Virus record (IMG/VR): IMGVR_UViG_3300048913_000256
Coordinates: 1-64,000 of that record
Length of the DNA: 64,000 nt
Direction: 5' to 3' (one strand)
Origin: a virus
Numbering within the stretch: the first letter of the stretch is position 1; each line of letters opens with the position of its first letter. Both the position numbers and the translations under genes were made by a program. Under the pieces are notes generated by a model. That model searched no databases. It was given only the letters and a program-made list of their open reading frames with translations, and was not told where the DNA came from. Below, in pieces: positions 3,802-49,579 of the stretch.

Positions 3802-4410
3802 ATGAAAGAAGCCCAACCACTACGCGACGAACGCCATATCGACGCCTTGATCGAGTCCTTGACCGGTCGCGACCTACTCCTGTTCCTCGTCGGCATCCGT
3901 TCTGCCTACCGCGTGAGCGACATTGTTCCGCTTAAACTCGGCACCCTGCGCCATGACTCGCACTATTACGTCATCGAGACGAAGACCGGCAAGACGCGCA
4001 TGATTAAAATCGACGACGACGTCCGTGCGCTTGCTCGCGAGATGCCCGGCGACGACGGCGAATATGCGTTCAAGTCGCGTGAGGGCGAGAACCAACCGAT
4101 CACCCGCCAACAAGTCGACCGCATCCTGAAGGCGGCGCAACAACGGGCGAACGCGCTGTTGAAGTCACGCAAGCAGCCGATTATCGAGCGGCCGATCTCG
4201 GCGCATACGATGCGAAAGACATTCGGATATCACTACTACACGGAGACGCTCGATGTGGCAACGCTGATCCGCGTCTACAACCACTCGTCCTCTGCGATGA
4301 CTCTCGCGTATATCGGGATCACGCAAGACACGATCGACGACGCGGTTGACGTCGTGAGCAAGTTGGGGAAGCGCGCGTTGGCGAAGAGAGGCGTACGGAA
4401 GGCGAAGTGA
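3802..4410 (+). CDS. Tyrosine recombinase, catalytic domain only (202 aa)
   Basis: Catalytic residues: R in GIRSAYRVSD, K in ETKTGKTR, HxxR in AHTMRKTF, H in NHSSS, Y in TLAYIG. GGAGG SD lies 8 nt before the ATG. Confidence 0.85.
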   Translation: MKEAQPLRDERHIDALIESLTGRDLLLFLVGIRSAYRVSDIVPLKLGTLRHDSHYYVIETKTGKTRMIKIDDDVRALAREMPGDDGEYAFKSREGENQPITRQQVDRILKAAQQRANALLKSRKQPIIERPISAHTMRKTFGYHYYTETLDVATLIRVYNHSSSAMTLAYIGITQDTIDDAVDVVSKLGKRALAKRGVRKAK

Positions 4411-7341: not shown

Positions 7342-8257
7342 TCTTCCCTGCGCCATAGTTCCAGCCGACCTCCAATTGCCACTGGTCGCCAATCCGCCGC
7401 ACATCGCCATCACTCGGCAGCCGGACCTTGAAATCCGATGAAAATTCGAATCCGAACGCATTCCGACGCGACCGCTCGCCATAGAACGTATCCTCATCGC
7501 ACCCCTTCGTTTCGCCCCGCCCCGCACGCTTCTGGCTGCGCTTGGACTTCGCGACTCTCGTTTCAGGCTTCGCGGTGTGCACTGTGTTCTTTTGCTTTCG
7601 CTCCATCACGCTCTCTGGCGGGATCGCGTATCGGAATCGCCCCGCCTCGTCCATCACGAATTGTGACGAGTAGAACGGGTACTCCGCCAACGTCGCCTGC
7701 CGGTAGTCGAGGGTCGCGTTGTAGAACGTGTATCGGTACGCGACCGGTGCGAGATCCACGACATTATCGGCTGGTTGCGGAAGTGAAGCGTTGATTGCCG
7801 CCAACATCGAGACGTCCGGTTCGGACAGAGGATTTATTGCGCCGGTTGCGACAGGGCGCAGAGGTGCGAATGGAACCGCGACGTCGGACGCTTCTGCCTG
7901 CGAGGTCGGGTGCCGGAACACCGCGCGAAGATTGCTCGCGATCCGCATCGCCGCCGAGCGCAGGGACTTCGATAGATTGGACGGATCCACACAAAGGAGG
8001 AGCGCCGCCTCTTGTACTTTGAGTCCGACAGAGTAGCGCAGGAAGATGGCGCAGCGTTGATGAGCGGTCAGCACGCCGGAGGTACCCGCCACGCGCATGA
8101 CGTCGACTAGGAGGGCGACCGAGTCGTCGGAGGATTCGGACTCATAGCGCACCGTCTCGATGCTGGCGAGGAGATTCGAGATCCCTTCGGTCGTGTATGC
8201 GTAGTCGGTATCATTCTGGAGCGGTTTCTTGCCTAGATCGCGTTTAACGTGTCCCAT
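7325..8257 (-). CDS. Putative late transcriptional activator (RinA/ArpU-like, sigma region-4-type HTH) with a ~190-aa C-terminal extension
   Basis: LTAHQRCAIFLRYSVGLKVQEAALLLCVDPSNLSKSLRSAAMRIASNL looks like a region-4 HTH. The gene sits immediately upstream of the packaging genes. Confidence 0.5.
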   Translation of the reverse strand: MGHVKRDLGKKPLQNDTDYAYTTEGISNLLASIETVRYESESSDDSVALLVDVMRVAGTSGVLTAHQRCAIFLRYSVGLKVQEAALLLCVDPSNLSKSLRSAAMRIASNLRAVFRHPTSQAEASDVAVPFAPLRPVATGAINPLSEPDVSMLAAINASLPQPADNVVDLAPVAYRYTFYNATLDYRQATLAEYPFYSSQFVMDEAGRFRYAIPPESVMERKQKNTVHTAKPETRVAKSKRSQKRAGRGETKGCDEDTFYGERSRRNAFGFEFSSDFKVRLPSDGDVRRIGDQWQLEVGWNYGAGKTKKIS

Positions 8258-8260
8258 CGG

Positions 8261-8455
8261 TTAATTCGCCTCCTTTTCGTGGACTTTCGATCCGCTGATG
8301 ATGGTGCGTACGCAGTCGTTGCAAACGCGCTCATCACGGCCGACACTCGTATGGTCGCGGAGTTTGGTTCGCGTCGCATAGCGGACTGGCACGTCCTCCG
8401 TGCCGCACACGTCGCAGCTTCCGAAATTCTCGTGGTAGTCAGGTCGCTTAAATAT
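8261..8455 (-). CDS. Small zinc-ribbon protein (CxxC...CxxC); start uncertain (ATA?)
   Basis: ...FGSCDVCGTEDVPVRY...ERVCNDCVRT... AGGAGG + 9 nt + ATA at 8453-8455. The next canonical start (GTG) would delete the first Cys. Confidence 0.45.
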   Translation of the reverse strand: MFKRPDYHENFGSCDVCGTEDVPVRYATRTKLRDHTSVGRDERVCNDCVRTIISGSKVHEKEAN

Positions 8456-8720
8456 TGAGATTCGCCTCCTTTCGTTGATGTGCGGCACGGAGCGTCTGCC
8501 ATGTCGCCTCGTCGAAATATTGCGCCAACCCGCGCCGCTCAACGCCCCAGTAGTCGAGGTTGGCGACGTTGTAGGTCGCGACCTTACCGTCGGGACGCGC
8601 AAGCCAGCGGTCAAGTGCGAGCGGAGCGTCGGTGATCTCACCTTCTGCGATAGACGGCTGTGTCATCGGGTTGTACGGCAGGCCGTTGGATCCGCGTGAG
8701 TTCGTGAGTTTAAGCGCCAT
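8448..8720 (-). CDS. Hypothetical protein (90 aa)
   Basis: GAAGGGGGG SD. First gene after promoter-like motif A. Confidence 0.6.
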   Translation of the reverse strand: MALKLTNSRGSNGLPYNPMTQPSIAEGEITDAPLALDRWLARPDGKVATYNVANLDYWGVERRGLAQYFDEATWQTLRAAHQRKEANLNI

Positions 8721-40138: not shown

Positions 40139-41458
40139 TTACGCTAGATTCGTTTGGTCAGGTAAAAGCTTGAAACGCGGAAACTCTCGCCGTTCAACGT
40201 CATTCGGGCGCAACTCCTCGACACGCTCGAGCAGCTCCGTAAGTGCCGCGATTCCAGTCGCTATGGCGACGACATACTGCTCGTATCCTTCACGCGATAG
40301 CCGCTTGCAGTCTTTCGCAAGTTCCGTGTAGGTTGCGATCTGAGCGATGTATCCAGCGAACTGAATTGATCCTCCGATGAAGACGCTAGACTCACGGAGT
40401 TCGGTGATCTCGAGGTCCCTCCGTTCGATTTCTTCGAGAAGTCGCGCGCGTTCGGCGTCATTGGCGGCGTTATCGAGTTGATTGCTGAGATTCGATCTCT
40501 CGTCGATGAGGCGGTCAATTTTCGCATCCCTCTCCTTGACCTCGTTACCCTTCTCGACGATCTCCTCGTTGAGTTCGCGTACGATGCGCTTGGCGTCGTT
40601 AAGTTCACTTTCGAGGTATTTGATGCGCTGCACGTCCTCGGGCGATCGCTCACCTACCGGTTTCTGGCGCGCCATCGTGAGGTCGCGGTTCAGCTCGTCG
40701 ACTGTGTTGCGAGATTGCGTGAGCTGGCGCGTGAGATCCTCGATCGTGGCGGCGTTGCGCGATGCAGCGTCTTGTGCGGTCTTTACTTTGTCGTCCATTT
40801 CGGCGCGGATCTTCTTCGCCTCGGCGACGGTGACTTTCTTCGTGTACTCGCGGATACCGTCATAGGCGCGTTGCTGCGCTTCAGGCGAGAGACAAGCGAA
40901 CTCGTACGCAGCGGTTGCGTTGAGTTCGCCTTTCTCGACCATGAGTTCGAGCGGGCGGATGAGTTCGTTGAGTTTGTCCAGTTTATCTACCATAGAGCCG
41001 GATACGCCCACCTCATTAGCGACGATGTCTCGCGTATTCCCTTTTAACTCCTGTGAATTATTATCAGGAGTCGTGTCGAGATCCGAGCGTTTCCCCTGAC
41101 GGTTTCCGATCAATTGCTTCTTGCGTCGAATCGCCTTCGCCATTTCCATATGGGTAAGCGTCCTAGTCCGCGTGTTCGCGTCGATCAGCGCTTCCTCGGC
41201 CTCACTCGCATCACGGAACTCTCGAATAATGCACGGAACCTCGTCCCACTCAAGAATACGCGCCGCTCTCGTACGCTGGTGTCCAGAGATGATCGTGAAG
41301 GACACGCCGTCGCGGATTACGACAACCGGATGTTGCATCCCGAGAGACTCGATACTTCCCGCCAATTCACCGAGTTCCTCTTCGTCAAGTGTGCGGAAAA
41401 AGTTGCGCGGGTGCTCTTTCAGTTGCTCTATCGGAATCATCGTGATCTTTTCGCTCAT
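40139..41458 (-). CDS. ParB-like nuclease-domain protein with a long coiled coil
   Basis: IPIEQLKEHPRNFFR...IISGHQRTRAA (ParB N-terminal domain). GGGAGGA SD before ATG 41458. Confidence 0.7.
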   Translation of the reverse strand: MSEKITMIPIEQLKEHPRNFFRTLDEEELGELAGSIESLGMQHPVVVIRDGVSFTIISGHQRTRAARILEWDEVPCIIREFRDASEAEEALIDANTRTRTLTHMEMAKAIRRKKQLIGNRQGKRSDLDTTPDNNSQELKGNTRDIVANEVGVSGSMVDKLDKLNELIRPLELMVEKGELNATAAYEFACLSPEAQQRAYDGIREYTKKVTVAEAKKIRAEMDDKVKTAQDAASRNAATIEDLTRQLTQSRNTVDELNRDLTMARQKPVGERSPEDVQRIKYLESELNDAKRIVRELNEEIVEKGNEVKERDAKIDRLIDERSNLSNQLDNAANDAERARLLEEIERRDLEITELRESSVFIGGSIQFAGYIAQIATYTELAKDCKRLSREGYEQYVVAIATGIAALTELLERVEELRPNDVERREFPRFKLLPDQTNLA

Positions 41459-41471
41459 TGTCGTATCCTCC

Positions 41472-42071
41472 CTATCGCGCCACGCGGCTCGTGTGCTTCG
41501 ATTTTTCACGCAGATACTGTTGGTGGTTCTTGAACAGCTCAGGCGCTAGGTTCACGACTTCACGCGATGAGAGTTCGAGATCCGCATCCGTACGATAGAG
41601 CGCTCTTTGCTCGGCGGTAAGACCGGGATTGCGTGCGGATACGCCGGTGAAGTGCTCACGAACTTCCTCGCGAAGTTCGAACAGACGCTCCTCTGAAGCT
41701 TCAAACGGGAGGGCTGCGTCGCCGATCGCCTCTACGCGGCCGTCGAGCGACTCCGAGTGCTCACGATCCTTCTTCCCTTTGTCGAGGAGATCGTAGACTC
41801 GCGAAGTGACTGCGCGGGTAAGTACTTTGATGAACGGTCCCTTGTCAGCGGAAGTGTATCGGCGGACCTCGTTCCAGACAGCCTCGAGATAAGCGGATTC
41901 GATGTCGCACGGATCAAGCGATTTGAATTTCGAGAAGGTTGCGAACGTTTTCGCCTTATGCTCGTCTAACTTCGCGATGAGCCGGTTAAACTGAGAATCA
42001 TCGGAACGTGTGAGGCCGCGATTTGCTGCGAGTGCCAGAGCGGTGATCGTTGCAGAGTTTGCGTTTTTCAT
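41472..42071 (-). CDS. Putative ECF-sized sigma-70-family factor (early regulator)
   Basis: Region-2-like IESAYLEAVWNEVRRY...FIKVLTRAVTSRVYDLL and region-4-like LTAEQRALYRTDADLELSSREVVNL. First gene of the leftward operon leaving the immunity region. Confidence 0.4.
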   Translation of the reverse strand: MKNANSATITALALAANRGLTRSDDSQFNRLIAKLDEHKAKTFATFSKFKSLDPCDIESAYLEAVWNEVRRYTSADKGPFIKVLTRAVTSRVYDLLDKGKKDREHSESLDGRVEAIGDAALPFEASEERLFELREEVREHFTGVSARNPGLTAEQRALYRTDADLELSSREVVNLAPELFKNHQQYLREKSKHTSRVAR

Positions 42072-42281
42072 TCGGGATCATCTCCTGATTTTCGGAATGG
42101 TAACTAATTCCCATTTCTCGAAAGGAGGCGACTCTTGCGAAAGTTAGACCGATTATTTGAAAATAGAACGTTAGTTCGCTTTAATGCAATCGGCAACTAT
42201 CGTAAGATGTAAGTAGTGTCACGCCATTGACATTCAGTGTCAGTCCGTTGTACATTTGACTTAACACAACTAGAATAAAAT

Positions 42282-42477
42282 GGCCAGACATCGCCTCACC
42301 ATCGAGATACCTGTTACGTGAGCCTCGCAACCGATCGCCAAATCGATGCGCAGCGTCTCAGGGCGGAGCCAATCGCCCGAGAATTACCGTGTGTCCCAAC
42401 CAACTAAAGATTCGTGATCGTGCCGCCAAGCACGTTTCACAACAGCAAAGGGCGCGGGTGCAACCGTGTCCTTTTTT
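42282..42477 (+). ncRNA. Candidate structured small RNA in the immunity intergenic region
   Basis: A GC-normal islet in AT-rich DNA with no ORF. It has a weak GGCCAGA-N14-CGAGATA motif at its 5' side, several hairpins, and a terminator hairpin at 42450-42471 followed by T6. Confidence 0.25.
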
Positions 42478-42739
42478 CGTTTTACTAGCAACGCGCCAAC
42501 GCACTATGTAAAACGATATTTCGTTTAACTATTACTATTGATAGACTAATAATACAGTATCGGAAATATTCGAGCAATAGCGAAACATGTCGAAACAAGT
42601 TCACAATACTCCTTATTACTAGAATACTTGGAAACTTCTACGAGTGTCAATCGTATTATACTAGATTCATACAATGTAAGAATAAAGACGCACGTGATAT
42701 AGTTTTACTATTAGACGTTTTTGGAAAGAGGTTGATAAC

Positions 42740-43051
42740 ATGGGGAACTTTCGCGTCAAAGGTGAGGAGATTCGGAAATTACGAGAGGTCATTGGGTGGA
42801 CAGGTGGTGAATTAGCAGAACGTGTCGGGACACACATGCAAGTGCTATATAGAATAGAGCAAGGTAGAGAGAAGCCCTCTATGTCTCTATTAACCGATTT
42901 TGCAAGAGCACTTGGAGTTCCTGTCTCGGAGTTGATTGAAGTTGAGCAAACATCGTCGATGGGATTCTTGCGATCTGGCCCTATCGTGATGGATATTCCT
43001 CCTGAGTTAGTAGAGCCTTTTATAGCAATTGTAAGATCGCATAAGAAGTGA
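42740..43051 (+). CDS. XRE-family HTH repressor-like protein (103 aa)
   Basis: ELAERVGTHMQVLYRIEQGREKPSMSLLTDFARALGV. Divergent from the early leftward operon. Confidence 0.75.
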   Translation: MGNFRVKGEEIRKLREVIGWTGGELAERVGTHMQVLYRIEQGREKPSMSLLTDFARALGVPVSELIEVEQTSSMGFLRSGPIVMDIPPELVEPFIAIVRSHKK

Positions 43052-43052
43052 T

Positions 43053-43082
43053 TTGACCCTTAATATACTACTGCAGTATAAT
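43053..43082 (+). promoter_or_regulatory. Sigma-A-type promoter overlapped by a 10-bp palindrome
   Basis: TTGACC, an 18-nt spacer, then TATAAT. The palindrome TACTGCAGTA lies at 43069-43078. Confidence 0.5.
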
Positions 43083-43107
43083 ACAGATAGATGGGAGGTG
43101 CCTAATT

Positions 43108-44361
43108 ATGCACTTAACTGGCGATCAGATTAAAGTTAGACGAAAGGAATTAAACTTGTCACAGAAACAACTCGCTGATCTCGCGGGGGTATCACGAAGT
43201 TATATTGCACAGATTGAGGCCGGCACGGCTACAAATGTCTCTGACGAGCACGTCCGTAGTATCGCTGCGGCCTTAATGCTACCGACAACGGAACAAACTG
43301 GCGATGACAACATCCCACTAACCGTTCGAATCGCACAACTGCAAGTCGACTTCGAATCGAATGAGCATGACTTGGCGTTGATGATTTCGCGAGCAGCCGA
43401 AATTGAGCGTTGTCTTGCGACTGACCGACGATCCGTTCACGCAGGTGATTTATTCACGTTATCAGCTCGTATGCTTCGTAAAAAAGGAGATTACTCTTCC
43501 GCCTATCGACACGCTTACGATGCGCAATCAGCCTATTCACTCTGCTCCGAAGTATACCGATGGTGCAAGGCTACCTACGAAATAGCGAGTATAGATTTCT
43601 ATAAATCAGAATATGGACATGCTATAGAACTATTTCGACAAATTGACACGCGCCTGCGTGAAACTGGGTTTCCTGATGACACTTTCAAAACACAACTGTA
43701 CGTGTCACTAGCTACCGCACTATCGGCTATCGGGGAGGTGGATGAAGCAATTTCCTTTGCGATGCGTGTAGAAGGCAATATCGAGTTCATTGAGGAGACG
43801 CAAAGGGATCGAGTTCGCGCCAACAATAACTACTTGCGTGGAATTGCTTCAGCCTCGACTGGTTCGTTTGAGGACGCTCTACGTTTTCTTAACATTGCAC
43901 TCGCACAATTCGAGGATATAAGCGATGGTCGAAATGTGTTGCGTATGAAAAATAATATTGCTCGCTTGTACTTCAAAAAAGGCGACATTCAGTACGCAAC
44001 CGAACTAGTTGAGAACATTCGAAATCTGGATAACTTCTCATCTCTTCCGTGGGACGACACATCTGAAACTATTTTACTTTTAGCTCAAATCGCTGAAGCC
44101 CGGTCGCACTTTCCTGTTGCGGTCGAAAATTGCGAATACTTAATCAAAAAAGGGGCAGATCCCGCCACAATGGCAAGAGCACATAGAGTCCTTGCATGGT
44201 GCTCCTACAAAGAGGGAAATCTTAGCGGTTTCAACAAGAGTATTACTGACGCACTCACCGCTCTCGATAATGCCCCTTTCCAAAAAGTGTTGGGGTTCGA
44301 ACTAATGCGTGAGTATATGATCGTTAACCATAGGCCAGATAGCCTTGTTCTAAAATTATAA
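43108..44361 (+). CDS. HTH(XRE)-TPR receptor-type regulator (RNPP/AimR-like architecture)
   Basis: N-terminal LSQKQLADLAGVSRSYIAQIEAG, followed by ~350 aa of TPR-like helical repeats (e.g. FEDALRFLNIALAQF, NIARLYFKKGDIQYATELVENI). Confidence 0.7.
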   Translation: MHLTGDQIKVRRKELNLSQKQLADLAGVSRSYIAQIEAGTATNVSDEHVRSIAAALMLPTTEQTGDDNIPLTVRIAQLQVDFESNEHDLALMISRAAEIERCLATDRRSVHAGDLFTLSARMLRKKGDYSSAYRHAYDAQSAYSLCSEVYRWCKATYEIASIDFYKSEYGHAIELFRQIDTRLRETGFPDDTFKTQLYVSLATALSAIGEVDEAISFAMRVEGNIEFIEETQRDRVRANNNYLRGIASASTGSFEDALRFLNIALAQFEDISDGRNVLRMKNNIARLYFKKGDIQYATELVENIRNLDNFSSLPWDDTSETILLLAQIAEARSHFPVAVENCEYLIKKGADPATMARAHRVLAWCSYKEGNLSGFNKSITDALTALDNAPFQKVLGFELMREYMIVNHRPDSLVLKL

Positions 44362-44393
44362 AAACCACGATCCGCTATGGACGTGGTTTTTTT
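44359..44393. terminator. Bidirectional terminator between the receptor gene and the peptide gene
   Basis: AAAAACCACG-loop-CGTGGTTTTTTT. Confidence 0.75.
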
Positions 44394-44404
44394 GATTCTC
44401 CCTT

Positions 44405-44578
44405 TTATACTGTATATGATCCGGGAAGCGGTGGTTGCCAATCAGCTACTTTATCGCTCTGGTACGCACCCGGAAGCGGCGGTTGATACTCGGATACCTT
44501 CGCAACCTCTACGCCACCGGCCGCCACTAGCGCCACCAGCGCGATCCCCGCCATCCATCGTTTCATTTTCGTCATCAT
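44405..44578 (-). CDS. 57-aa secreted pro-peptide with a tandem QPPLPG(A/S)Y repeat; absent from the ORF track
   Basis: GGGGGA + 8 nt + ATGATG. Sequence MMTKMKRWMAGIALVALVAAGGVEVAKVSEYQPPLPGAYQSDKVADWQPPLPGSYTV. TATAAT (sense) at 44621-44626. Confidence 0.6.
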   Translation of the reverse strand: MMTKMKRWMAGIALVALVAAGGVEVAKVSEYQPPLPGAYQSDKVADWQPPLPGSYTV

Positions 44579-44776
44579 CGTTCCATTCCCCCATTTAACG
44601 TGTTATCATTCCCCACGCTCATTATAGCGCATCTGAGCGCGATCCGCCTTTACTTCTTCGTTAAATTCGCGCTAATACGTCCCAATAAAAGACGCCTCCC
44701 TTCGCGGTTATCCTCGCCAGTCCTGCGCGATCTGTCCGCGTTGTGAGGCGTCGTGCTTCCGACATCGTGCTATAGG

Positions 44777-45022
44777 CTATTCGTCACTCTCGTCCTTAAA
44801 CTTCGCCAAGAAGCGCTCATGCGCCGCCAGCGCCTCTTTCTCGTCATCGATCGCCAGCGCCCGACCGGTGCGCAGCGCTGCCTCCACGGTCGCTAGGTCG
44901 GCGTTAGCTTCCGGGAAATCCGCGAGCACTTCGGCGATTACCTTGAGCGACTCTTCTGCGGTGTTGAAAAGCACACGCATCTGCACCAGCCCAGCGTCGC
45001 GCACCTTATCGAATCCGCTCAT
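44777..45022 (-). CDS. Hypothetical acidic helical protein (81 aa)
   Basis: Clean ORF and last gene of the par operon. Confidence 0.55.
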   Translation of the reverse strand: MSGFDKVRDAGLVQMRVLFNTAEESLKVIAEVLADFPEANADLATVEAALRTGRALAIDDEKEALAAHERFLAKFKDESDE

Positions 45023-46684: not shown

Positions 46685-47734
46685 CTACTCCGCCGTAACT
46701 GGCGATTCTGCACGCCCCAAGAACAGCCCGTAGCGATAGAATCCGACCGCGTTCGCTTCTTGTGCGTTCTCAACAACGACGATATCCGGGTGCCACCCGC
46801 GGAGAACCTCGACGATTTGCGGGATTGCTGCACCGCCGCCGGTCAGCAGGATCTTATCGAACTTGGCGCGATCCTTCCAGCGGGCGTTGATTGCCGTTTT
46901 GACGCGACCTGCGAGGTTACGGAACGCCGTATCGACAATCTCGGTGATGTCGACCTTGTAGTTGTTGTTTACGATATAGCGAATGGCGTTGGTACCGGCG
47001 AGCTGTTTCTTGACGCGCGGGGCAGACGCTTTGATTGCCGCGTCCTTCGCGTTAAGCCAGTTCGCGATTTCTTGATAGACCGTGTTGATGCCGAGATCAA
47101 ACGTATCAGTGTCAAGTGGTTCGCGCAAGAGTTCCTTTATGCCGTCAATGTCCGTCGTTCCGGATCCGATGTCGATTACGCCAATATAGCCAAACTCGTA
47201 AGAATCATCGGCGACATACCCGTCTTCGTCGAGGTAGCACGCCAATACGGAGCCAAGCGGCTGCGGCAGTACCTGAACGTCGGTCACGTTGAGCATCTTC
47301 TGGCCGCCCTCGACGTCGATGTAGTGCGCTCCCTTGTAAACCGCGATGATATCGTTCTCAAGCGGAGTTTTGATCTCGTTAGAAGGAACGCCAGTGATGA
47401 TGCGAACCTCAACGATACCGTCCGGCGCGAGCGCAGCCAGAATCGCCTCGGAGAGGATTTGATATTCACGTTGTTTGTAGCGGTCAACTGTCGCGAGTGT
47501 GGCGATCGGGTTCGCTACCTTGTGGATCTCGTCGCCCCACACGATAGACTCGTTGGTGCGCCCAACTTTATAGGTACGCAGGGACGGCGAGCCGGTGCCG
47601 CCCCCGATCGCGATTACTTCTTGCGGGACATCGCCCGGAAGCGCGTACTCGCTAGGGCGCAGAATCGTCGCATGTTTGGAAATCGCCTTTACATAGCCGT
47701 TGCCGTGATCGATACCCATCGCCAATTTCGTCAT
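46685..47734 (-). CDS. parM: Actin-like segregation ATPase (ParM/Alp family)
   Basis: Phosphate-1 GIDHGNGYVKA, phosphate-2 VIDIGSGTTDI, adenosine LLTGGGAA. ATG at 47734 follows GGAGG. Confidence 0.8.
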   Translation of the reverse strand: MTKLAMGIDHGNGYVKAISKHATILRPSEYALPGDVPQEVIAIGGGTGSPSLRTYKVGRTNESIVWGDEIHKVANPIATLATVDRYKQREYQILSEAILAALAPDGIVEVRIITGVPSNEIKTPLENDIIAVYKGAHYIDVEGGQKMLNVTDVQVLPQPLGSVLACYLDEDGYVADDSYEFGYIGVIDIGSGTTDIDGIKELLREPLDTDTFDLGINTVYQEIANWLNAKDAAIKASAPRVKKQLAGTNAIRYIVNNNYKVDITEIVDTAFRNLAGRVKTAINARWKDRAKFDKILLTGGGAAIPQIVEVLRGWHPDIVVVENAQEANAVGFYRYGLFLGRAESPVTAE

Positions 47735-47888
47735 GAGTCGAAAACCTCCGTTTTTGTATGCGGTTTTATATAAAACTGCGGGTGATAAGTACATCATAGC
47801 GCGGTTGGGCGGATTTGGCAATAGTATACGCGTTCTCAATATGGCACTTTTATATAGAACTTCATTGGTTGGAGTTTTTGGCGTATCT

Positions 47889-47975: not shown

Positions 47976-48303
47976 GCTCGTGGTAATGTAGAAGCAATAC
48001 AATCTACCAAAATTCGACTATCACCAAAATTACATAGAGTACGTTCAGACCACGCACTTCGTGTTTTGCGCCAACAGAACATGAAAAAGGGTTCCTCCGC
48101 CAAGAGGAACCCCGTGGTTGCACCGAAACCGTCGAAAGAAGCGGTGCACAAGACATCAAACTGTTACCCTTATTGTAGCCAAATTCCGGCTTATAATCAA
48201 GGGGTTACGGCACATTTAACGAGCCTTCTCGTTGGATTAGAGCCGATCTTGTGCGACTACGTCCTTCTGACGGTAATCGTGCGGATCGGCTCTTTTGCGT
48301 ATC

Positions 48304-48333
48304 TCGGACAACACCGCCCATTAGCGCGAGATC
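48304..48333 (+). promoter_or_regulatory. Phage promoter-like motif, copy I (plus strand)
   Basis: tcggacaacaccgcccattagcgcgagatc, 40 nt upstream of ATG 48374. Confidence 0.55.
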
Positions 48334-48373
48334 TCCGACGACTACGTATATCCACGAGGAGGCTTATTCCGTT

Positions 48374-49579
48374 ATGGCTACTATCGAACAAGTGGCGCAT
48401 CTCCAGTCGTTCCCGTCAGTCGAGGCGATGGATGCGCATCTCCAACGTTTCTTCACGCTGTCCAAGCACCAACTCAGCGACACCCGTCGCAAGGTTCTCG
48501 AATACATGCAGACTCGCGCCGTCAAGGTCGTCGGTGTATGCAACGCAAAGGTGCGCACGATCGCGGCGGCCGTCGGTTGCAGCACGCGAACCGTCCAGCG
48601 AGCGATAGACTTCGCGGTTGACTGCGGCCTGATTCGCGAGGAGCTTCGGTGGCACGAGAACGGCGCACAGGCGTCGACCGTGTACGTTTTTCAGAACGAA
48701 TTGTCAGGAGGGTTGTCACCCTCCCCTGTCACCCCATATACGCTTTTAGATCTTTCACACTCTTCTGCTACACCAAAACCTACAGAGGTAATCGTAAACG
48801 ACGTCCGCGACTGCGATTCGAAATTTGATTCGATGACTTTTATTCCGAGCTACATCCCGAGAAACTTCGCCTATCACGCACATCTCTACTTCGGCGATCC
48901 GGTTGAAGTTACCGCACTTTGGCGAGCTGCGGTCGAAGGGTTCCGAGTACTCGGCGAGAAGGTCGACGCTGTTTTCGCTTGTGGCGCACTCACCGACGCG
49001 ATCGTCAGCAAGCAGTACAAAGACGAGAAGGGCGAACCGGTCCGCAACTTCCGCTCGTTCTTTAAGGGCGCGCTCATCCGCATTTTCCGCCGGTTGGAAG
49101 AGAACGAGGCGGTGCGCCAGCAGAACGCGGAGAACGCCCCTATCCGCCAGTTTGCACAGAAGTCTGCCGTCCCAAACGTAAGCACCGACGCGCTTGACGA
49201 ACTCCTGCGTATGAAAGCCGCCGCACTCGAATCAGATCCGCAAGCGGACGAACCTGTCGTGCAACCATCCGCAGACGACCGCGAGGATGCGCTCATCGCC
49301 GAAACCCTACGTTCCGAAACGCACCACACCGCGCGCGCAAAATGGATCGATGTCCTTTCCGCTGCCGCCGTGCAAGTCTCGCCAAGCGCATATCAGCGCT
49401 GGTGGTCGCAGTCACGCGGGGTCGCGGAGGTTGACGGAAAGTTGATCGTGGCAGTAGATACGGAGATGGAGCGCGGTTGGTTGGAGACATACGCGAGAAC
49501 AATTGCGGAATTAGCGCAGCAACCGGTCCGTATCGTCGTCTCCTCTACCGCTCCCCTTTCGACAACGACGGCAGGCTGA
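48374..49579 (+). CDS. Rep-like winged-helix protein (candidate plasmid-mode initiator)
   Basis: GAGGAGG SD. wHTH segment RKVLEYMQTRAVKVVGVCNAKVRTIAAAVGCSTRTVQRAIDFAVDCGLI. Adjacent to the DnaA boxes. Confidence 0.5.
   Translation: MATIEQVAHLQSFPSVEAMDAHLQRFFTLSKHQLSDTRRKVLEYMQTRAVKVVGVCNAKVRTIAAAVGCSTRTVQRAIDFAVDCGLIREELRWHENGAQASTVYVFQNELSGGLSPSPVTPYTLLDLSHSSATPKPTEVIVNDVRDCDSKFDSMTFIPSYIPRNFAYHAHLYFGDPVEVTALWRAAVEGFRVLGEKVDAVFACGALTDAIVSKQYKDEKGEPVRNFRSFFKGALIRIFRRLEENEAVRQQNAENAPIRQFAQKSAVPNVSTDALDELLRMKAAALESDPQADEPVVQPSADDREDALIAETLRSETHHTARAKWIDVLSAAAVQVSPSAYQRWWSQSRGVAEVDGKLIVAVDTEMERGWLETYARTIAELAQQPVRIVVSSTAPLSTTTAG

Follow-up and report, generated by a model that had tools for sequence, protein, structure and literature searches.

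The locus of the candidate receptor

The window, as the whole stretch analysed here is called, comprises 64,000 nucleotides (nt) of the IMG/VR virus record IMGVR_UViG_3300048913_000256 (positions 1 to 64,000) and belongs to a tailed phage of Gram-positive Bacillales. Within it, a gene for a 417-amino-acid (aa) protein with a helix-turn-helix (HTH) domain and tetratricopeptide repeats (TPRs) converges on a 57-aa open reading frame (ORF) of the opposite strand; the two probably form a cognate pair of receptor and pro-peptide of the RRNPP(A) kind. The features of the module are these:

42740-43051, + strand: XRE-family HTH protein, 103 aa, first gene of the module (Pfam HTH_31/HTH_3; HTH_31 E-value 3e-12)
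43108-44361, + strand: receptor candidate, 417 aa, HTH plus TPR (Pfam HTH_3, E-value 8e-14, residues 8-58; TPR_12, E-value 5e-9)
44354-44397, both strands: bidirectional intrinsic terminator common to the convergent receptor and pro-peptide genes, with U-tracts on both strands
44405-44578, - strand: gene of the 57-aa pre-pro-peptide, MMTKMKRWMAGIALVALVAAGGVEVAKVSEYQPPLPGAYQSDKVADWQPPLPGSYTV
44513-44578, - strand: signal-peptide-like residues 1-22, ahead of a 35-aa region that contains two pheromone-like units
44462-44488, - strand: repeat unit 1, YQPPLPGAY
44414-44440, - strand: repeat unit 2, WQPPLPGSY, followed by TV and the stop codon
44621-44626, - strand: TATAAT, -10 element of the pro-peptide promoter, 48 nt upstream of the ATG
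44614-44641, - strand: 8-bp inverted repeat CGCGCTCA-N12-TGAGCGTG enclosing that -10 element
44685-44752, - strand: terminator-like long hairpin with a U-tract, after the upstream 81-aa gene

A first-pass annotation, made from the letters alone, had described an XRE gene and an HTH-TPR gene at these positions, a shared bidirectional terminator, and beyond it a convergent ORF with a Shine-Dalgarno (SD) sequence, its own TATAAT, a signal peptide and two near-identical repeats. All of these are present, and the JGI annotation calls the same small gene; its SD is GGGGGAA, though the -35 element of its promoter is a poor match.

The 57-aa ORF lies 43 nt from the receptor stop codon. Its N-terminus resembles a signal peptide: three K/R residues and no D/E, then a hydrophobic stretch whose best 12-aa segment has a Kyte-Doolittle mean of 2.59. 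Of 1,000,000 shuffled versions of the mature region, 25 contained an exact repeated 6-mer such as QPPLPG. The QPPLPG cores of the two units differ at 3 of 18 nt, with three synonymous and no non-synonymous changes.

Other frames cover the same DNA. A 73-aa ORF (44377-44598, + strand) was rejected, its start falling inside the terminator, as was a 47-aa ORF in another - strand frame (44451-44594); the 57-aa frame is preferred to both because the synonymous-only differences between units fit just that frame. Long ORFs antisense to real genes are numerous in this 56% GC genome (44377-44598, 40478-41047 and 46760-47773, all on the + strand, are examples); they are by-products of composition, not genes.

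The pro-peptide gene is an insulated transcription unit of its own, with the hairpin at 44685-44752 upstream and the shared terminator downstream; the latter folds strongly on the + strand (-18.7 kcal/mol, z -7.2) and on the - strand (-16.8 kcal/mol, z -4.5). An equivalent hairpin stands upstream of the pro-peptide promoter at two of the related loci described below, L006 and L009. A -10 element lies at -48 to -60 from the ATG in six of seven pro-peptide genes examined, again with poor -35 elements; because the window's -35 is poor, a scan for consensus promoters omitted this one. An inverted repeat of the same geometry (8-bp arms, 12-nt spacer) encloses the -10 element at L006 (~2560-2590), with different arms (GCCTACTT/AAGTAGGC); none was seen at L009 or L007. 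This repeat may be an operator. The poor -35 and the inverted repeat around the -10 together suggest that expression of the pro-peptide is regulated, and we infer that its promoter depends on an activator or a repressor.

The small gene accompanies the receptor in most relatives with known context

Relatives of the receptor are few. An exhaustive HMMER search of 1.84 billion representative sequences recovered about 15, mostly full-length (~405-418 aa) and at 20-33% identity, nearly all of them metagenomic singletons. Only two are named: WP_038083888.1 of Tumebacillus flagellatus GST4 and WP_386043817.1 of T. lipolyticus. A genome scan for the family returned T. flagellatus alone. Because the sole named relatives come from Tumebacillus, the hosts of the family are likely Tumebacillus-like Alicyclobacillaceae or neighbouring Bacillales. 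Word-indexed protein searches gave essentially self matches only, whether the query was the receptor, the family profile or the peptide; protein searches of 50,697 GenBank phage records (tblastn) and of PLSDB plasmids gave matches to the HTH and no relative, and none was found in IMG/VR or in a JGI metagenome scan. The two family alignments, A1 and A2, are too divergent for pattern-based locus searches.

Genomic context was retrieved for 11 relatives, making 12 loci with the window. Co-occurrence of receptor and repeat peptide, a check that the first-pass annotation had proposed, came out positive: in seven of the 11 relatives, and thus at 8 of 12 loci, the receptor gene is followed immediately on its 3' side by a small ORF that combines a signal-peptide-like start with a short Pro-containing motif. 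Besides the window these are:

L005: motif YDIPGPLKNKQVT, 2 copies; last unit reaches the stop codon
L006: LDQPPLT, 3 copies; last unit reaches the stop codon
L007: ADVPPIPT, 4 copies
L008 (T. flagellatus): IVDPDPK / MVDLDPQK / IVDPDPK, 3 copies
L009: PEPPIPSPP, 1 copy
L012-14: VVDPDPIG, 2 copies
L016: TEPPIM, 2 copies; last unit reaches the stop codon

The ORF is convergent with the receptor gene at seven loci (the window and six relatives); at L016 it is co-directional, 15 nt downstream, which is the canonical RRNPP layout. Two to four copies of the motif are present at seven of the eight loci, and the receptors of the peptide-bearing relatives are only 22-30% identical to that of the window. 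One further contig, L010, stops 67 nt past the receptor gene.

The combination is specific to this position. The non-redundant sequence of the analysis, ~130 kb, was scanned as a control in six frames (3,996 ORF/start combinations of 30-130 aa); a signal-peptide-like N-terminus together with an exact repeated 5-mer occurred in only seven ORFs, every one of them adjacent to a receptor gene and the window's among them. Repeat units of identical peptide differ by synonymous changes only, at 3/18 nt in the window, 6/21 at L008, <=5/21 at L006, 5/24 at L007 and 5/24 at L012, a pattern that is in part ascertainment, as the cores were chosen by peptide identity. Identity over 6-13 residues despite 10-29% nucleotide divergence would be unexpected for non-coding DNA or for another frame. 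By these comparisons the small ORFs appear to be translated, and the motif to be under selection.

At L005, which is Tumebacillus lipolyticus-like, the pro-peptide gene is immediately preceded, on its own strand, by a gene for a trypsin-family serine protease (7804-8559, - strand), possibly a processing enzyme; no such gene was seen next to the pro-peptide at loci other than L005.

Fold and family of the receptor

An AlphaFold2 model of the receptor, built on the family alignment (predicted local distance difference test score, pLDDT, 88), consists of an N-terminal helical XRE HTH (~residues 1-58), a disordered linker and 18 helices arranged as nine TPR-like pairs. A structural comparison had been suggested with the original annotation. 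Among the top 50 Foldseek matches in the PDB, the best template modelling (TM) score belongs to apo NprR (5dbk_A, 0.61/0.70), and the NprR-NprX complex 4gpk scores 0.57/0.68; Rap proteins, the peptide-binding TPR domain of LGN, and PlcR follow, the last with a score of 0.38 when normalised to the query. The proposed likeness to peptide-sensing RNPP receptors thus holds. As to family, the receptor is not an AimR: no AimR structure is among those top 50, and no Rap, NprR, PlcR or AimR family model is among the Pfam (E<=0.1) or NCBIfam (E<=1) matches.

Sequence searches touch the same families at long range. A phmmer comparison with NprR is marginal (E 0.05-0.11, residues 194-324), and the family profile matches the TPR regions of Rap proteins in the PDB (6t3h, 1e-7; 3q15, 5e-6), a match that indicates distant relatedness only. 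A fold search of BFVD returned generic giant-virus TPR proteins only. The model places the receptor among the nine-TPR RRNPPA-like folds, clan B of PMC12700828, in no curated subfamily.

Probable joint exchange of receptor and mature peptide

A comparison of L006 (2458-2687) with L009 (3370-3598) suggests how such pairs diversify. The two share 91% identity in flanking DNA and 97% in a 143-aa protein. Across the pro-peptide promoter and codons 1-21, the part encoding the signal peptide, identity is still 82%; there the homology ends. Past that boundary the mature peptides are LDQPPLT in three copies and PEPPIPSPP, and the receptors are 29% identical. The pro-peptides of the window and of L007 likewise have similar signal peptides (MMTKMKRWMAGIAL... 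and MMTENFKRMIAGIAL...) and different motifs. The boundary inside the pro-peptide ORF would be one of recombination or divergence, setting the export signal apart from the mature peptide and the receptor; the latter two appear to behave as an exchangeable specificity (‘pherotype’) cassette.

Base composition can be read in the same light. The GC content is 0.419 in the control region, 0.452 in the XRE gene and 0.456 in the receptor gene, compared with 0.565 across the window and 0.55-0.57 in the flanks. An AT-rich island spanning the whole module had been proposed; it holds for these three segments and fails for the 57-aa ORF, which at 0.557 has the level of the backbone, so that the island stops at the terminator. 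Exchange of the receptor as a pherotype cassette would account for that limit. At every locus with a measurable flank, the receptor gene lies 3-12 points of GC under it.

The control region and its neighbours

The regulatory features upstream of the receptor gene are:

41472-42071, - strand: gene of a 199-aa protein, first in the operon divergent from the XRE and receptor genes
42072-42739: AT-rich control region (GC 0.42), flanked by the leftward early operon and the rightward XRE and receptor genes
43053-43082, + strand: sigma-A-type promoter ahead of the receptor gene, near consensus (TTGACC-18-TATAAT)
43061-43083: imperfect inverted repeat with 9-nt arms, one mismatch and centre TACTGCAGTA, overlapping the -10 of the receptor promoter

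The control region holds several promoter-like sites and short inverted repeats (between 42000 and 45500 there are 11 promoter-like sites, with 4.9 expected), and is presumed from its sequence to be a site of regulation containing operators. The inverted repeat over the receptor promoter is a candidate operator. A decamer, AGTATAATAC, recurs in inverted form at 42653-42662, upstream of the XRE gene, where it could serve as a leftward -10 element. Also within the control region (42227-42484), a promoter-like TTGACA-18-TACATT on the + strand is followed by an intrinsic terminator (42447-42484, + strand); a small transcript of ~220 nt, devoid of ORFs, could be made between the two. Its fold has a z-score of -2.25. 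Rfam has no match to it, and a scan of 41900-44900 against Rfam gave no credible match.

The leftward early operon begins, counting from the control region, with the gene of the 199-aa protein, followed by a ParB-like gene. The 199-aa protein is 42-49% identical to counterparts at L005 (4745-5362) and L009 (477-1127), and at both, as in the window, it forms with a ParB_N gene a pair that adjoins the receptor gene. It has no match in Pfam or the PDB; NCBIfam gave a very weak sigma-factor-like match (E 0.08). The gene is a candidate direct target of the switch. The 103-aa XRE protein is possibly a repressor or co-regulator: at L003, L004, L006, L007 and L010 the receptor gene is immediately preceded, in the same orientation, by the gene of a homologue with 31-39% identity and a common C-terminal motif.

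Genomic position and likely output

The first-pass annotation had placed the module at a lysis-lysogeny switch, and synteny with Tumebacillus prophages, which bring a cro-like XRE gene and a serine integrase, supports that placement. In the T. flagellatus GST4 prophage (L008) and a related metagenomic prophage (L012), early genes, an XRE gene and a cro-like XRE gene run leftward; the receptor gene runs rightward and meets the leftward pro-peptide gene; the serine integrase gene follows, pointing toward host genes. The T. flagellatus prophage occupies ~36-46 kb of JMIR01000002.1, and its peptide has the accession WP_152559143.1. No other repressor candidate is present at these two prophage loci. 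The receptor is assigned the position of CI there because it is divergent from the cro-like XRE genes and adjoins the serine integrase. At L016 the receptor gene is divergent from an 83-aa HTH gene. Loci of the window's type (with L003, L004, L006, L007 and L010) have the XRE gene ahead of the receptor gene on the same strand, and in the window this pair is divergent from the 199-aa and ParB-like genes.

Its position in prophages and the divergent gene pairs together suggest that the divergent early promoter region is a target of the receptor. The system would then feed the density of phage or lysogens into a lysis-lysogeny or maintenance decision.

The phage that carries the locus

The phage was found in two samples (JGI 3300048914 and Logan SRR35925505), and has no DNA-level relative among GenBank phages or PLSDB plasmids. 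It is a phage of soil Bacillales. Its genes include those for a large terminase, portal, tape-measure protein, family-A DNA polymerase, class II ribonucleotide reductase, ThyX, primase, DnaB-like helicase, Amidase_2 endolysin and BhlA holin; between this terminase and those of the Paenibacillus larvae phages Tripp and Halcyone there is 60% identity. Genes that bear on its persistence are:

3802-4410, + strand: tyrosine recombinase, 202 aa, catalytic domain only, Xer-like
40139-41509, - strand: ParB-like protein
46685-47839, - strand: ParM/Alp7A-like actin
48251-49579, + strand: HTH_36 Rep-like protein

Since ParB-like, ParM/Alp7A-like, Rep-like and catalytic-domain-only recombinase genes occur together, the phage may be maintained as a plasmid-prophage.

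Proposed mechanism and alternatives

The reading that best joins these observations takes the 417-aa protein and the convergent 57-aa ORF as a cognate receptor/pro-peptide pair of the RRNPP(A) kind, with a receptor of an uncharacterised family found in Tumebacillus-like Bacillales phages and prophages; from the sequence comparisons, a probability of about 0.72 can be put on this. The precursor would be expressed from its own promoter, the observed part of this step being the insulated unit and the conserved -10 element. Its N-terminal signal sequence would direct Sec export. Cleavage outside the cell would release two copies of a short Pro-Pro pheromone containing QPPLPG; such cleavage is suggested by the repeats, the last of which directly abuts the stop codon in three relatives. 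The host's oligopeptide permease would re-import the pheromone, as is known of RRNPP systems. Bound in the groove of the nine-TPR superhelix, it would alter the oligomeric or DNA-binding state of the receptor, as the NprR-like fold leads one to expect. By its HTH the receptor would act on promoters in the AT-rich stretch that separates its own operon from the early one; the pro-peptide promoter may be a further target. In this way the choice between lysis and lysogeny (or prophage maintenance and induction) would respond to how densely phages or lysogens that share the signal type occur locally. That the peptide favours lysogeny, as in arbitrium, is a guess by analogy.

This is very likely a new RRNPP-type subfamily, and by its genomic position it probably governs lysis-lysogeny. 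A fuller account, with slightly better than even odds, describes a distinct RRNPP subfamily of Alicyclobacillaceae-type phages in which the protein at the CI position is itself the receptor; a polyprotein-like precursor yields two to four pheromone copies with the Pro-Pro core (Q/E/V)PP(L/I)(P/T); and signal types are switched by recombination that swaps only the receptor and the mature half of the precursor, promoter and signal peptide staying with the backbone.

Several findings weigh against the pair as proposed. No pro-peptide ORF was found beside the receptor at L003, L004 or L015, contigs of 2-3 kb, one of which carries the closest relative, and the L009 peptide has one motif copy only. 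In Foldseek, non-signalling proteins (consensus TPR, LGN and OGT) surpass NprR by E-value. A search for a common operator in the control region and in the promoters of the receptor and the pro-peptide turned up nothing beyond short, unconvincing matches. Among the scanned ORFs of the window no full-length integrase was found, and a temperate lifestyle has to be read from the genes for the 202-aa tyrosine recombinase and the ParB, ParM-like and Rep-like proteins.

The missing peptide ORFs on the short contigs and the strong matches to generic TPR proteins would be expected if the receptor were an ordinary CI-like repressor, its TPRs serving oligomerisation or sensing something else; the 57-aa ORF would then encode an unrelated small secreted or membrane-anchored accessory protein, for superinfection exclusion for example, and would lie at the operon end by chance, as its backbone-level GC content might suggest. 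Such a coincidence is improbable: the adjacency of receptor and peptide is kept at 22-30% receptor identity, in three genomic contexts and in both orientations; the mature peptide and the receptor diverge jointly, and the signal peptide goes with the flank; and short motifs in several copies, under purifying selection and ending at the stop codon, are the signature of a pheromone precursor. Pro-rich multi-copy precursors occur among eukaryotic antimicrobial peptides, and one might therefore cast the repeat peptide as an effector, antimicrobial or interfering, whose gene is regulated by the receptor without its product being the ligand; the poor -35 and the inverted repeat around the -10 would agree with such regulation. 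This is very improbable, as the motifs are just 6-8 residues long and mostly uncharged or acidic, not cationic, and as co-variation with the receptor is what a ligand predicts, not an effector.

A different alternative accepts receptor and pro-peptide as a genuine pair and moves the output elsewhere, to replication or partition of a plasmid-prophage or to host physiology (sporulation, competence). The module does lie between a ParB-like gene and a ParM/Alp7A-like partition operon with a Rep-like HTH_36 gene; the pair of 199-aa and ParB_N genes is kept beside the receptor at L005 and L009, L005 being located among chromosomal genes; and phage Rap-Phr systems target host sporulation and competence (PMC11343458). 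Against this stand L008, L012 and L016, where the receptor gene is found in the classical place of CI: it is divergent from cro-like genes and, at the first two, next to an integrase. Nor does any homologue of a host regulator adjoin the receptor. An output away from lysogeny is on these grounds unlikely. If the receptor of the proposed pair is indeed the prophage repressor, then immunity and communication are directly fused in one protein. The candidate pheromones are short and easily synthesised.

Comparison with known systems

In its broad features the module agrees with the RRNPP(A) class: a receptor of 417 aa (~250-500 aa is usual) with a TPR domain of nine helix pairs; an N-terminal HTH (HTH_3, E 8e-14), which all subfamilies but Rap possess; and an adjacent ORF of 10-100 aa with an export-signal-like N-terminus, here and in seven of 11 relatives. 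On the structural model, the system would work like RRNPP(A) systems, with NprR-NprX of the Bacillus cereus group the nearest in architecture and fold. The mature NprX peptide is of the SKPDI type. NprR, the best structural match, shares the XRE HTH and nine TPRs in ~420 aa, and NprX is a Sec-type pro-peptide giving a short Pro-containing mature peptide; NprR also belongs to the non-degenerate nine-TPR clan B (PMC12700828). The differences lie in layout and role: nprX is co-directional, downstream, and encodes one pheromone copy, whereas here the peptide gene is convergent and encodes two; NprR is encoded on the chromosome and governs necrotrophism and sporulation rather than a phage switch.

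Phage peptide communication has been established experimentally mainly for arbitrium and for the Rap-Phr systems of Bacillus phages. Arbitrium (AimR-AimP-AimX, of SPbeta-like and other Bacillus phages) resembles the present system in having a phage-borne intracellular HTH and TPR-like receptor, a secreted pro-peptide and a lysogeny control region, and in the joint diversification of receptor and peptide into specificity types. In arbitrium, however, aimP is on the same strand, specifies a single C-terminal hexapeptide and is followed by aimX; here the peptide gene is convergent and the motifs number two to four. Nothing lies between the window receptor and the terminator, and an aimX-like gene is absent downstream because the terminator and the convergent gene fill that position; only L016 has a co-directional layout. 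Identity with AimR was rejected for want of a match to its family models or structures, as given above. The separateness from aimR-aimP that had been proposed at the outset is upheld by the convergent orientation and the multiple copies, with the qualification that a convergent layout as such has a precedent among RRNPPA systems (PMC13361665).

Phage Rap-Phr systems (phi3T, phi105) also combine a phage-borne TPR receptor with multi-copy pro-peptides and extracellular proteolysis, and tandemly duplicated pheromones are known among them (PMC11343458); phr is co-directional and overlaps rap, and the motifs are unrelated to those of the window. Rap proteins have a three-helix N-terminal domain before the TPRs and act by protein-protein interaction without an HTH, unlike the window receptor. 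Identity with Rap-Phr was rejected on the HTH of the receptor and the convergent peptide gene. The five-TPR clan of PlcR, Rgg, ComR and PrgX (~285-320 aa, often with degenerate TPRs) was rejected on the 417-aa length and nine helix pairs.

Two precedents exist for the orientation. In the group III Rgg/SHP systems of streptococci the peptide gene is convergent at the 3' end of the receptor gene (PMC13361665), as it is here; the fold is the degenerate five-TPR one, and the SHPs are short hydrophobic peptides, exported by PptAB, in single copy on Lactobacillales chromosomes. Characterised Sec-dependent Bacillales systems have the peptide gene co-directional and downstream (PMC9765709). RRNPP_detector accepts all orientations, and its unfiltered table holds many uncharacterised Alicyclobacillaceae pairs, convergent ones included (PMC10075063). 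One of these, QSO53942.1/QSO53941.1 of Alicyclobacillus curvatus, pairs a 409-aa TPR receptor with a convergent, SignalP-positive 58-aa ORF 11 nt away (predicted cleavage DNS-QP); compared by its table entry alone, it differs in having no HTH recorded and forms a singleton cluster (PMC10075063). A literature search found no paper linking Tumebacillus to such a receptor-peptide system.

What is new here, set beside these systems, is the receptor subfamily, the multi-copy Pro-Pro pheromones, the conserved convergent layout with a shared terminator, the cassette boundary within the pro-peptide gene, and a receptor at the CI position. If the proposed pair is real, it would add to arbitrium and Rap-Phr an independent receptor family, outside the curated sequence models for Rap, NprR, PlcR and AimR and in a different host lineage (Tumebacillus, Alicyclobacillaceae), and the recombination boundary within its pro-peptide gene would show how new signal types are installed as a cassette.

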